From assembly GCA_012813795.1 (NCBI GenBank), contig GCA_012813795.1_4087.1: 64,000 nt of DNA; one strand, written 5' to 3'. Source of the stretch: a phage. Below the pieces are notes generated by a model, which was not told where the DNA came from, searched no databases, and saw only the letters and a program-made list of their open reading frames with translations. A program made the position numbers and the translations under genes. Shown here piece by piece: positions 32,282 to 45,555 of the stretch. Position 1 is the first letter of the stretch; each line of letters starts with the position of its first letter.

Positions 32282-33439
32282 ATGTTACCTTTTGTTAGAA
32301 TGTTTGAGTACGGGAATGTAGCACCTATACAGCCAAAAATTATCCAAATGGAGTGTTTAAATGGTGGAGTTTATTTACTATACGATAATGGTGAATTATA
32401 TTATCGTGGACGAAATAGCAATGGACTAGCAGGGGATGGGACAAACACATCAAAGAGTAGTTCATGGATTTTGTCTAATACTAATGTTGCAATGCTAAGT
32501 AAAGGTGTGAGTAATTATGCTGTTGTTAGGAAAAAAGATAATACATTTTGGATGACAGGATCTTATAATTTATTTGATGTATCTGGGTGGACTAAGTATA
32601 GATGGAATGATGTAACCAGTAATTTTAGTGAAGTTAGTTCTAATTTAATTTGTGTATATTGTAATGGTGGTGGTGTGTTAACACTTCGCAGTGATGGAAC
32701 GTTGTATGCTTTCGGAACTAGTACAAGTGGTCAACTTGGCTTTGGAAGTGCAACGACAATCAACACATTTACTAAAGTGGCTGAATCAGTATCCACGAAT
32801 CCAGATAACGTTATTGCCGTTTTAGGTGGTTGTTATTATATAGATGAAAATAATAGGTTGTTTGCAACTGGTGTTAACACAAACGGACAATTGGGTATTG
32901 GTAGCACGGTCAATGCCCTTTCATTTACGTTGGTGAATACAGGGACAACTTATCCAGTGGTTAAGTCTATTATGGCTAATGCAAATGGTGCAAATATATT
33001 GGCCTATAAATCGGACGATTCTGCATATGTAACAGCGGCGAGTGGATATTTGTCGTATATAGGTACGGGTCAAACTTCTGGTATTGGGACTATATTTTCA
33101 AATTATGCTGCATTGAATAACCCAGACAACTTTAATATATTGAAGTTAAGTACATCTCTCGGTAATACAAATGCAATGCTTGTAGTAACCGACAAAGGTG
33201 TATATGCAACTGGTATGAATAATTACTACCAACTCGGAACTGACAACTCAACAAACCAGACTTCATATGTCAAAGTTGTTGGATTACCAGATGATGCTGA
33301 CACAACAACTATAAGATTTCTTGGTGGTACAGCAGAAGGAAGTGCATGTGTCTATCGTGATAAATTATATGTTTCTGGTGTTCTGGGGCAATGGGGGGCA
33401 GGCTACCCAAAATTCACTGAATTGGAAATTCCGTATTAA
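32282..33439 (+). CDS. RCC1-like beta-propeller repeat protein (cassette 1)
   Basis: Start at ATG 32282 (MLPFVRMFEYGN) 5 nt after AAAGGAGG; repeated G.N..GQLG motifs (GVNTNGQLGIGS, GMNNYYQLGTDN). Confidence 0.7.
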   Translation: MLPFVRMFEYGNVAPIQPKIIQMECLNGGVYLLYDNGELYYRGRNSNGLAGDGTNTSKSSSWILSNTNVAMLSKGVSNYAVVRKKDNTFWMTGSYNLFDVSGWTKYRWNDVTSNFSEVSSNLICVYCNGGGVLTLRSDGTLYAFGTSTSGQLGFGSATTINTFTKVAESVSTNPDNVIAVLGGCYYIDENNRLFATGVNTNGQLGIGSTVNALSFTLVNTGTTYPVVKSIMANANGANILAYKSDDSAYVTAASGYLSYIGTGQTSGIGTIFSNYAALNNPDNFNILKLSTSLGNTNAMLVVTDKGVYATGMNNYYQLGTDNSTNQTSYVKVVGLPDDADTTTIRFLGGTAEGSACVYRDKLYVSGVLGQWGAGYPKFTELEIPY

Positions 33440-33445
33440 TATCAT

Positions 33446-33476
33446 GCCAGTACTTGATACTGGCTTTTTCTTTTTG
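33446..33476 (+). terminator. intrinsic terminator (GCCAGTA-cttga-TACTGGC plus TTTTTCTTTTT)
   Basis: 7-bp perfect stem followed by a T-run; near-identical copies follow most cassettes. Confidence 0.7.
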
Positions 33477-33510
33477 GATTAAATATGATATAATGAATAA
33501 AGGAGGAAAT

Positions 33511-34404
33511 ATGTTACCTTTTGTTAGAATGTTTGAGTACGGGAATGATGTACTACCTGTCATAAATGGTGGTGTACGAACACAATTTACTACATCACCA
33601 GTACCTTCAGCACGAAATAACTTTGGTTATACGTATGATGCGGAAAGTAATATTGCTTATATATTTGGTGGTATACAGAATGCGGTGCAGACAGATAATC
33701 AGTTATGGGGTTTTAATTTAACTACTAGAACGTGGTCACAATTAGCCAATGCACCTGTATCTACATTTGGTAGTGCGTTATGTGCTTATCAGGGAAAAAT
33801 ATATTTGTTTGGTGGTTCAGGTAATGGTAGTAATAATTTTTATGTATATAATATAAGTACAAATACATGGATTCTGAACACTAACAGTATTGGGAAGCCT
33901 AGTCAACTCGCGTATAGTAAGATGATTACTGCTGGGGATAAGATATATTTGTGGGGTTCGCCTACTAATAATTCGTTATACAGTTATACTCCAAGTACTA
34001 ATACATGGTCATCATTAGGTACAAGTGATGGAACAAATAACAATGGAGGTGGTGATATGTGTACGGATGGTACTTACATATATATTACTGGTCAAGGTAC
34101 TAGTACTGCACAAAAATATCATATACAGAGTGCGGTGTGGTCTAACATAGCACCAGTGGGTGGTACTAACCCTAGTAAAATATGTTACAGTACATATGAT
34201 AAAAATATATATGCAGTGTCGTATGGTGCATTAAATTTATTGAGATACGATGCAGAAGAAGACATATGGATTCCCTTAGCGGTTAATACTACTTTGAGTA
34301 GTAGTACTGGTGCGTTATTTGGTTCTAAGAATAGTGCTGAGATATTTTATGTACTTGGTTTTGACAATGGCACTCGTGTTAATACGCAGTATGTTTTTAA
34401 ATAA
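33511..34404 (+). CDS. Kelch-like beta-propeller repeat protein (cassette 2)
   Basis: Same N-terminus MLPFVRMFEYGN; body shows Kelch-type pattern (IYIFGG ... TRTWS, KIYLFGG ... TNTW) rather than GQLG repeats. Confidence 0.6.
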   Translation: MLPFVRMFEYGNDVLPVINGGVRTQFTTSPVPSARNNFGYTYDAESNIAYIFGGIQNAVQTDNQLWGFNLTTRTWSQLANAPVSTFGSALCAYQGKIYLFGGSGNGSNNFYVYNISTNTWILNTNSIGKPSQLAYSKMITAGDKIYLWGSPTNNSLYSYTPSTNTWSSLGTSDGTNNNGGGDMCTDGTYIYITGQGTSTAQKYHIQSAVWSNIAPVGGTNPSKICYSTYDKNIYAVSYGALNLLRYDAEEDIWIPLAVNTTLSSSTGALFGSKNSAEIFYVLGFDNGTRVNTQYVFK

Positions 34405-44304: not shown

Positions 44305-44313
44305 TACTAATAT

Positions 44314-44341
44314 GCCAGTACTTCAAGTGCTGGCTTTTTTG
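44314..44341 (+). terminator. intrinsic terminator copy
   Basis: gccagtacttcaagtgctggc plus tttttt. Confidence 0.65.
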
Positions 44342-44399
44342 TATATTATATAAGATATATTTTAATTAAATACGTAGTATATCATAAGGAGAATAATAA

Positions 44400-45555
44400 A
44401 TGCTACCATTTGTGCAAATGTTTGTATATGGGAAAAAAGATCCTGCACCACCTATTAAGAAAATAGCTTCATCTGATACATGTATATTTGTTCTTATGAA
44501 GGACCGGGACGTTATATGGGAGAGGTTCACAGGAATTTGGTCAGTTAGGTGTTAACAGCACAACCACACAGACAACATGGACTATATGTAATACTAATGT
44601 TGATGATGTTTGGTGTGGTTATGAGACTACAATGATAAAAAAGTTCGATAATACCATGTGGTATGCTGGGACAGGGGCATCCGTTGGTATAGGTAATTCA
44701 TCAAGTACATCATGGGCATCATTGAGTACTGTTTTTAACAGAATAACGTCCGATGGTCGAGTAGTTAAACAAATAGTTTTAAGTGCAGGATCAATGAGTA
44801 TTCTGTGCACAGATAACACTATATGGAATACAGGATATGGTTCATATGGTCAATTAGGAAATGGAAGTTGGGATGATTCTATCAGTTCTTTTGTCCAAGG
44901 AACCGTTCCAAATGGAATAACACCCAGTTCTATCGTTGGTTTATTCCTAATGAATGGATTTATTAGTACTGAAGGTTTACTGTATTACACTGGTGCAGTA
45001 GCTGGTGTAGGAACAACAGACATGACTATATATAATAGATATACATTATGTTCACAGGTTCCTAATACATATCGAGTACTTGATTATTTTTCAAATGCCA
45101 GTTATTTTGGTATAGCTATTGCACAGAATAAGAGTACATCAAGAGTATATTCATATACTGGTGGTGGGCAGTATTATGGTCAATTAGCAAATGGGTCAAC
45201 CGCCTCAACATACATATCATTAAGGCAGACAACACAGCCGAGTGGGGATATAATACGTTGTGGCGTGGGTTATTCATATTTTTCTCATCATATAATCACC
45301 AGTACTGGTGTTTATGCAGCAGGGCAAAACACTGAAGCTGAACATATTGGTCAATTGGGTACAGGTATACAATCAAACGCATCAACCTATACTAAATGCG
45401 TAATACCAGCAGAGATGAATATGAATAATGTATATGTAACAAGCACAACTTATAGAACGTACTTAACTGATGGTTATCATGTTTATAGTACTGGACAATA
45501 CACAAGTGAAGGTGGAATAGCCAGTAATTCATTTGTTAAAGATTCACCTATTTAA
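44400..45555 (+). pseudogene. RCC1-like paralogue (cassette 11) with a 1-nt frameshift near 44504
   Basis: N-terminal ORF 44400..44552 (MLPFVQMFVYGK..) stops after 50 aa; the +1 frame from 44500 reads GTLYGRGSQEFGQLGVNSTT and continues to 45555; removing one C from gaCCggg restores the frame. Confidence 0.55.

Follow-up and report, generated by a model that had tools for sequence, protein, structure and literature searches.

Why should a run of neighbouring phage genes with strongly divergent bodies open on the same few residues? We pursued this question in a 64,000-nucleotide (64-kb) stretch of phage DNA (NCBI GenBank assembly GCA_012813795.1, contig GCA_012813795.1_4087.1), here called the window and always meaning that whole stretch, in which a sequence-only reading had noticed eleven genes sharing the N-terminal dodecapeptide MLPFVRMLEYGN or a variant of it, hereafter the tag. 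Searching both strands of the window with a degenerate pattern for M-L-P-F-V-R-M, allowing up to three mismatches, returned eleven matches, all on the + strand (32282, 33511, 34417, 35632, 36847, 38027, 39249, 40511, 41762, 42952 and 44400), against 0.89 expected by chance and with none of 100 shuffles reaching eleven. Together with the translations, the scan bore out both the shared peptide and its listed variants, namely MFEYGN in cassettes c1 and c2, MLDYGN in c4, c6, c8 and c9, FARM in c4, and VQMFVYGK in c11. A relaxed protein motif gave no twelfth copy elsewhere in the window on either strand, and the span 32282–44435 opens with the first base of the c1 tag and closes with the final base of the c11 tag. 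As detailed below, the tag is independent of fold, promoter and genus and is strictly N-terminal. We judge it, on balance and only just, probable that the tag serves as a lineage-specific N-terminal peptide for virion incorporation, carried by interchangeable binding modules that dock on the outside of the particle, an estimate that covers tag function and external docking jointly.

The window belongs to an Asteriusvirus-type jumbo coliphage of the 121Q/PBECO4/phAPEC6 group, the region matching such phages (A4 at 96%; 121Q, PBECO4, phAPEC6 and others at 83–90%), and databases name the array genes 'regulator of chromosome condensation / DNA condensation protein'. RCC1-like bodies follow the tag in c1 (32282–33439; 385 amino acids (aa), a 7-blade propeller; tag MLPFVRMFEYGN at 32282–32317), c3 (34417–35559; 380 aa; MLPFVRMLEYGN at 34417–34452), c4 (35632–36774; 380 aa; MLPFARMLDYGN at 35632–35667), c5 (36847–37956; 369 aa; MLPFVRMLEYGN at 36847–36882), c6 (38027–39175; 382 aa; MLPFVRMLDYGN at 38027–38062), c7 (39249–40439; 396 aa; MLPFVRMLEYGN at 39249–39284) and c8 (40511–41686; 391 aa; MLPFVRMLDYGN at 40511–40546). 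Cassette c2 (33511–34404; 297 aa; MLPFVRMFEYGN at 33511–33546) encodes a Kelch propeller, c9 (41762–42941; MLPFVRMLDYGN at 41762–41797) is a split RCC1-like gene, c10 (42952–44304; 450 aa; MLPFVRMLEYGN at 42952–42987) has a divergent RCC1-like body, and c11 (44400–45555; divergent tag MLPFVQMFVYGK at 44400–44435) is a frameshifted RCC1-like gene. Repeat signatures (Pfam RCC1/WD40_RLD in nine genes, Kelch in c2) correspond to propellers of 6–7 blades. The eleven propeller proteins of the earlier description are not a single family, and the c10 body has no Pfam match and was recognised only through the PHROG RCC1 profile (phrog_4219, E 4e-17). All eleven cassettes carry the tag but only nine are intact genes.

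The two damaged genes have counterparts elsewhere. In c9, a single-nucleotide (1-nt) insertion inside a GQLG motif (42535–42545, near 42540) leaves a first open reading frame (ORF) of 269 aa that ends at 42571 and a continuation ORF at 42549–42941. The 269-aa truncation is identical in 121Q and phAPEC6 (gp007), and from its sequence c9 may be a pseudogene, conserved and still expressed, or else a programmed frameshifting site. In c11, a 51-aa ORF ends at 44555, the frameshift falling after about 35 codons and the body resuming in the +1 frame to 45555; truncated ORFs of this type (51–52 aa) form a database cluster of their own (P0236), so the lesion is common to at least one other genome. The c1 protein, for its part, is 100% identical to a database entry named 'hypothetical protein [Escherichia coli]' on a 357,761-bp contig, and the window appears to derive from the genome of a lytic jumbo phage that was deposited as part of a bacterial assembly.

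Across phages, the tag follows the consensus M-L-P-F-x-R-[M/I/L]-h-x-Y-G-N, usually continued by x-[A/V]-P. When 1.84 billion representative proteins were searched with a profile built on residues 1–32 (E ≤ 1e-3, clusters at 50% identity), 49 clusters came back; two were spurious, and in the other 47 the motif stood at residue 1, except for one in which it stood at a miscalled start. Kelch homologues at 52, 40 and 34% identity start with MFPISIISQYGN, MIPIPRMVQYGN and MLPFARISQYGN, respectively, and RCC1 homologues at 35–60% identity start with MIPFARI[LV][SK]YGN or MLPFPILLEYGN. Scanning IMG/VR with the back-translated tag matched only 121Q and Pectobacterium phage CBB, and relaxing the scan brought in Serratia phage BF, GAP32 and three uncultured contigs of ~355–371 kb. 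A 548-aa protein starting MLPFYSVKDYAN on two contigs of 20–23 kb (L020, L025) was taken to fit the relaxed DNA pattern by chance and left uncounted.

Genomes hold 10–14 tag-bearers, with at least ten in each of phAPEC6, 121Q and CBB, and the bodies behind the tag vary widely. One bearer each in 121Q and phAPEC6 is a 245-aa glycine-rich protein. The ten bearers of CBB (CBB_548–554, seven in succession, CBB_536/537, and CBB_247, which lies ~170 kb from the array between recombination genes) have Kelch, Laminin_G_3/ConA-like or phrog_6011 'virion structural protein' bodies. GAP32 gp001 (RCC1-like) and gp002 both carry the tag, and one metagenomic contig has five bearers in a row. On an uncultured 355-kb phage contig (L024 6416–8416, − strand), a 667-aa protein bears one tag followed by RCC1-like and Kelch propellers, and by its sequence it is apparently a fusion of two cassettes. 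Regarded as a feature of propeller proteins, the tag does mark RCC1-like and Kelch bodies, but it is found on lectin-like, glycine-rich and unclassified bodies as well. IMG/VR scans, Pfam and PHROG assignments and metagenomic context yielded no enzymatic or location-diagnostic tag-bearer body, only beta-rich domains of binding type, so that body type leaves a place inside or outside the particle undecided.

The peptide is conserved within a phage group and differs between groups. RCC1-like and phrog_6011-like bodies stand under another N-terminal motif in the Vequintavirinae: phage A5-4 has a tandem trio of RCC1-like genes starting MLEMLNLG (L008 8007–11505), and the phrog_6011-like gp182 of phage 4MG, annotated as a virion structural protein, starts MEEMLLVG. 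Over A5-4 and two 4MG stretches (L014 6950–7600 and 11933–12586), the motif takes the forms MLEMLNLG / MEEMLLVG / MLEAMLTAG, and it has the look of another lineage-specific tag, independent of the MLPF one, borne by the same body families. The MLPF tag is absent from the last 36 kb of RaK2, the syntenic genome end with its tail-fibre/depolymerase array; that array, considered as a further carrier, has other, domain-sized N-termini instead.

Published mass spectrometry (MS) ties these proteins to the virion. The structural proteome of phAPEC6 lists gp003, 005, 006, 007, 009, 010, 549 and 551 as 'DNA condensation' or hypothetical proteins (PMC7247149), and all eight start with the tag when their sequences are mapped. 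One of them, gp007, is the c9 orthologue cut to 269 aa by the frameshift; even an incomplete propeller with an intact N-terminus thus still turns up in particles. The CBB virion proteome includes CBB_247, 536, 537, 548, 549, 551, 552 and 553 (PMC5259590), that is, eight of its ten bearers, the array-distant CBB_247 among them. Relative to the background fraction of structural proteins, bearers are enriched with P ~9e-6 in CBB and ~4e-5 in phAPEC6. In GAP32, gp001 was reported as a structural protein identified by MS and gp002 has a structural annotation, so that bearers count among virion components in three phages by published MS lists. The CBB supplementary peptide table has no entries for tag-bearing proteins, and no 'YGN' peptide from them was found. 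The claim of a sorting, packaging or assembly tag thus gains from a peptide under selection, from its persistence where the promoter cassette is missing, and from the virion proteomes, but it has to share the ground with gene conversion, which also homogenises the tags (see below).

Structure prediction sets the tag apart from the folded body. The AlphaFold2 model of c2 has a Kelch propeller with predicted local distance difference test (pLDDT) values of 85–98, against values below 50 and no secondary structure for residues 1–18. The c1 model (mean pLDDT 91) gives residues 1–10 a pLDDT of 54 with a weak helix at 4–11; its first strand and propeller begin at about residue 20, and Foldseek matched it to a UVR8/RCC1-like 7-blade propeller (TM 0.78). 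In both models the tag is a free N-terminal extension outside the propeller. The hydrophobic moment of residues 3–11 is ~1.7 as a helix versus 0.15–0.36 as a strand, and the variable positions 5 and 9 are spaced i, i+4, a periodicity that suits an amphipathic helix of two turns; the tag probably folds as a short amphipathic helix upon binding, with a short Pro-rich linker as a tether. The tag contains no signal-peptide-like hydrophobic stretch, and the bearers are proteins of ~30–49 kDa with isoelectric points (pI) of 5.1–8.3, hence not basic.

Under the favoured reading of a virion-incorporation tag with external docking, the tag would belong to the Rak2-like jumbo phages (Asteriusvirus, Mimasvirus and uncultured relatives), and RCC1-like and Kelch propellers, concanavalin-like lectins, a glycine-rich domain and small unclassified domains would be the modules behind it. 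The tag of every bearer would bind one common acceptor site in the assembling particle, and a module gaining the tag would become a virion component. Cassette duplication, replacement and gene conversion would shape the array such that the tags stay matched. The acceptor would sit on the particle exterior, whether on the capsid or the sheath or at the foot of the 'hairs' of phAPEC6, 121Q and CBB, where the modules would serve as accessory adhesins. We infer in this three things, namely that the tag causes incorporation, that the acceptor is single and that its location is external.

We favour an external location because several features converge. The nearest non-phage relatives of the bodies have extracellular hallmarks (type IX secretion system (T9SS) sorting, SLH, Big_2, FN3, dockerin, NanM-like). 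RCC1 propellers also form part of some long phage proteins, of which one has a tail-fibre annotation, and in jumbo phages LamG lectins have been associated with fibres. To these come the missing Glu or L/I-x-E site (see below), the size and pI of the proteins, and the richness in tag-bearers of phages reported as hairy (phAPEC6, 121Q and CBB). Several points weigh against the favoured reading. The window holds no candidate acceptor for the tag, the array sits outside the structural gene module, and the bodies are predicted to be monomeric globular domains, unlike the trimeric fibres and spikes with known docking peptides. The phAPEC6 authors suggested that the RCC1-like proteins might belong to the capsid inner body, and their MS list also has apparently non-structural proteins (a topoisomerase subunit, a PhoH-like protein and an ATPase; PMC7247149), so co-purification of abundant late proteins is possible. 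The logo of 103 distinct 16-mers (M1 L2 P3 F4 x5 R6 [M/I/L]7 h8 x9 Y10 G11 N12 x x P15) is circular at positions 1–4, the M-x-P-x prefix having been the criterion of collection. Finally, the within-genome homogenisation of tags could stem from gene conversion alone, without co-evolution with a partner.

The best-surviving alternative, possible though in our estimate improbable, makes the tag an uncleaved equivalent of the capsid-targeting sequence of T4 internal proteins. It would bind the prohead scaffolding core and thereby bring the modules into the head, perhaps into the inner body seen in phAPEC6; together with the DNA they would then be ejected into the host and bind host proteins there, for example as anti-defence factors. 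T-even internal-protein loci reportedly consist of tandem cassettes with a conserved promoter and ribosome-binding site (RBS) and ~10–12 conserved first codons, a layout that the array repeats on its own dissimilar bodies. T4 IPI/IPII/IPIII and Alt likewise share ~10–12 N-terminal residues on otherwise unrelated proteins found in virions, and come from a hyperplastic locus with conserved expression signals in a phage with the T4-type head. Rak2-like phages possess such a head module, with homologues of gp20, the gp21 protease and gp23 (CBB paper, Table 3), the genes lying outside this window. An internal role is further consistent with the amphipathic periodicity and weak predicted helix of the tag, with the presence of bearers in virions, with the inner-body role proposed by the phAPEC6 authors, and with a hypervariable gene content that suits an arms race.

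What separates the tag from the T4 sequence is the processing site and the cargo. There is no conserved Glu where the tag ends or close by, and position 9 is E/D in the window, K/N in the 121Q and phAPEC6 tags and Q/E/K/R/A in those of CBB and GAP32; no L/I-x-E (gp21-type) site occurs near the N-terminus, the first such motifs lying deep in the bodies; and the two peptides have no sequence similarity. The cargo is not small and basic but larger (~30–49 kDa), well folded and neutral to acidic, and its body families and nearest bacterial relatives are of the extracellular or carbohydrate-binding type. MS coverage in phAPEC6 is modest (3–17%), similar to that of a low-copy tail fibre protein. The T4 analogy drawn in the sequence-only reading thus holds for a short N-terminal peptide on unrelated proteins and for the cassette layout, but not for the conserved Glu and cleavage site.

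A more general idea, which we entertain as a doubtful possibility, is that the 12-mer is an uncleaved loading signal for any protein, into or onto the particle, with the 10–14 hypervariable modules competing for one acceptor class. If this were true, individual virions might be combinatorial mosaics that hedge their bets on adhesion or host range, or else, were the acceptor the prohead core, they might carry a packaged arsenal of host-protein binders injected with the DNA as anti-defence effectors. The same idea would provide a 12-residue handle for loading foreign cargo on ~350-kb phages.

We think it unlikely that the tag is instead recognised by a non-virion partner, such as a phage chaperone, a protease (the tag being a degron) or a membrane or export factor, with virion association merely incidental. 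In its favour, the array is syntenic, here and in CBB, with a DUF1190 lipoprotein gene and small membrane-protein genes; against it stands the strong enrichment of bearers across three independent virion proteomes, with a gene from outside the array among them, and the tag has nothing resembling a hydrophobic signal peptide.

The expression signals bear on whether the peptide matters at all. The true start of each gene is the Met of MLPF, with AAAGGAGG 5–7 nt upstream of it; the in-frame upstream ATG of the automatic ORF list is part of a promoter-like TATAATG, and c3, c7, c10 and c11 either lack it or have it blocked. Ahead of eight of the eleven genes, the alignment of upstream regions revealed a shared unit on the + strand, made of a terminator-like hairpin (GCCAGTACTTGATACTGGC) with a T-run, a promoter-like motif (TTAAATAnnnTATAATG) and then AAAGGAGG, as exemplified by the intergenic cassette at 33446–33495. 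Further hairpins occur at 35566, 36781, 37963, 39182, 41698 and 44314, and further promoter-like motifs at 32250, 35600, 36815, 37995, 39216, 40479 and 41730. The promoter-like motif had eight exact matches, every one in the array, and a terminator scan found 13 versus 5.7 expected. Cassette c3 starts 13 nt after the c2 stop and c10 starts 11 nt after the preceding stop, both without a promoter/terminator cassette of their own, and the unit upstream of c11 is a divergent version.

With these signals mapped, the tag can be compared with its surroundings. Counted from the ATG, mean pairwise nucleotide identity among the eleven copies is 0.92 and then 0.83 for the first two 15-nt blocks, against 0.56–0.67 over the promoter and RBS and ~0.33 (background) from codon 16 on, which places the conservation maximum in the peptide and not in the promoter. 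In codons 2–12, synonymous differences (pS) amount to 0.418 and non-synonymous differences (pN) to 0.065, giving a pN/pS of 0.155, and among the ten close copies codon positions 1/2/3 contain 1/1/5 variable sites (five of seven at third positions). The bodies of the paralogues are 21–26% identical, whereas their first 12 residues are ~90–100% identical and hold 9 of the 18 invariant alignment columns. The comparison of synonymous and non-synonymous changes in the first 36 nt, which had been suggested along with the initial observation, comes out in favour of a selected peptide.

Gene conversion operates at the same time. Two multi-site tag haplotypes, TTA GAG TAC GGG and TTG GAT TAT GGA, are common to non-orthologous paralogues. 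Orthologue pairs between this phage and 121Q are 92–99% identical in their bodies and only 81–86% identical in tag nucleotides; c4, for instance, has a body 99% identical to its 121Q orthologue and a tag 86% identical in nucleotides. All tags of 121Q and phAPEC6 read ..RM[V/I/M/L][K/N]YGN and all tags here ..RM[L/F][E/D]YGN except the divergent c11. Within the two genomes (this phage and 121Q) the tags have identities of 0.88 and 0.93, against 0.83 between them. Even copies without the promoter cassette (c10 and 121Q copy 1149) have the tag type of their own genome. Selection on the peptide and gene conversion both act.

That the conservation is a mere footprint of conversion or recent duplication spreading from the promoter/RBS cassette, the peptide itself having no function, is accordingly a very improbable account. 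It can point to the shared haplotypes, to tags more alike within than between genomes and to the common upstream terminator–promoter–RBS of eight cassettes, and the part of this reading that invoked conversion was correct. Spill-over from the promoter alone is ruled out by the codon analysis and by bearers without the cassette: the tag is better conserved than the upstream unit, its variation is mostly at third positions, and it is kept where upstream homology is missing, in c3, c10, 121Q copy 1149 and all operonic genes of CBB, GAP32 and the metagenomic array. The arrays of the Mimasvirus phages CBB and GAP32 and of metagenomic contig L012 are packed like operons behind unrelated upstream DNA and still start ATGTTACCnTTy..., and the tag persists across genera and on bodies of different folds. 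Judged from these comparisons, the footprint account is already largely refuted.

Hardly more plausible is an element acting in the mRNA, by which the conserved 5' coding sequence would serve as a translation-initiation enhancer or unstructured AT-rich start rather than encode a functional peptide. Codons 2–4 are nearly fixed even synonymously (ATG TTA CCW TTY) across genera, and the AT-rich tag region lies directly 3' of a strong RBS. Codons 5–12, however, vary synonymously with their amino acids held (GTT/GTA/GTG, TTA/TTG/CTA, TAC/TAT, GGG/GGA, AGA/AGG), the most conserved residues include Y10-G11-N12, 28–36 nt into the ORF, and a purely RNA-level element would not confine its conservation to the first two codon positions. 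Ring closure by a terminal strand is common among propellers, RCC1 and Kelch included, but that the tag is such a 'velcro' strand is scarcely credible and was ruled out, as both AlphaFold2 models build the propeller confidently without the tag residues and the identical tag occurs on two propeller families and on non-propeller folds.

Some further observations concern promoters and neighbours. In Mimasvirus-type phages, tag genes at the head of operons (CBB_552, GAP32_001/002 and the metagenomic array) have a terminator hairpin and GTAAATAC ~35 nt before the ATG; GTAAATAC resembles the T4 late promoter TATAAATA, and the related ATTAAATA is present in the window's cassettes. A gp55-like sigma factor is encoded by these phages (CBB paper). 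A promoter-like class distinct from that of the array, the repeat TT(C/T)AGTACTGTATAATG with an extended -10-like TGTATAAT, lies upstream of small − strand genes at 18216–18232, 18445–18461, 18771–18787 and 27531–27547. Directly upstream of the array, 30955–32179 (− strand) holds six consecutive ORFs of 61–75 aa whose N-termini resemble one another (M..(H)K.(F)Y..(L)...) and which by sequence appear to be another tandem paralogous family. At the other end, a 182-aa ORF adjoining c11 (45567–46115, + strand) has neither tag nor Pfam match but contains an RCC1-like LYVLGDVSNGEGG stretch and may be the remnant of a further cassette. Beyond it, 46147–49192 (− strand) comprises the DUF1190 lipoprotein gene and a run of small membrane-protein genes, convergent on the array end. 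The CBB tag array has the same DUF1190/membrane-gene neighbourhood and convergent orientation (CBB gp432–440), which puts the hypervariable array at a genomic position conserved across genera.

Returning to the virion-incorporation tag, its value is that the largest family of paralogues in Asteriusvirus jumbo phages, so far annotated by name transfer, receives a function that can be tested. A single sequence rule ties together about ten otherwise unexplained virion proteins per phage and provides a candidate molecular entry point to the 'hairy' decorations, so far unexplained, of phAPEC6, 121Q and CBB. If the tag were sufficient for incorporation, its 12–18 residues would enable display on, or packaging into, very large phage particles. 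Papers on these phages treat the proteins only as RCC1 or 'DNA condensation' paralogues; the searchable literature has no occurrence of MLPFVRM, MLPFARM, MLPFSR, MLPFPR or MLPFTR, and a literature search for structural work on Asteriusvirus and Mimasvirus virions gave nothing beyond phAPEC6 at 10–25 Å.

Among known systems, eukaryotic RCC1, a guanine-nucleotide exchange factor for Ran that binds chromatin and from which the database name comes, resembles the array proteins in its 7-bladed propeller fold only. Identity is 15–19%, the array proteins are neutral to acidic, and Kelch and lectin domains stand behind the same tag at the same locus; the 'DNA condensation' annotation is name transfer, and nothing supports DNA condensation. 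Another comparison is with the N-terminal particle-binding domains of the branched tail fibres of RaK2/phiK64-1 (Alcyoneusvirus) and CBA120, related jumbo phages in which an array of virion proteins with conserved N-termini occupies the same genome end. Those N-termini are, however, folded D1-like domains of ~110 residues on trimeric depolymerases, and differ in sequence (M.N.LIQPKGSVSKE / MSLSNLS).

The closest described principle, by analogy, is the N-terminal docking peptide of alternative receptor-binding proteins (RBPs). In K1E/K1-5/SP6 (7- and 11-residue peptides) and in KP32/KP34, alternative RBPs dock via short conserved N-terminal peptides, and the 'conserved peptide' of the second KP32/KP34 RBP binds the branching domain of the first (PMC6872550, PMC13352976). 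As with the tag, these peptides are short (7 to ~20 aa), conserved within a phage group and different between groups, and stand on variable bodies, with modules plugged into one virion site. The present case departs from them in its bodies, which are small, apparently monomeric propeller or lectin domains by prediction rather than trimeric beta-helix depolymerases; single propeller, ConA-like or Gly-rich domains make up the proteins, without fibre or beta-helix regions. It also departs in having 10–14 bearers per genome against 1–4, in an array at the genome end away from the tail genes, in an unrelated tag sequence and, unlike KP32/KP34-type systems, in a window that offers no candidate for a T4gp10-like acceptor. 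The modular logic of a lineage-specific N-terminal peptide with horizontally exchangeable bodies would extend in this way beyond classical tail spikes to small lectin and propeller modules: the docking principle is known, and this tag, its range of body folds and its copy number are new.

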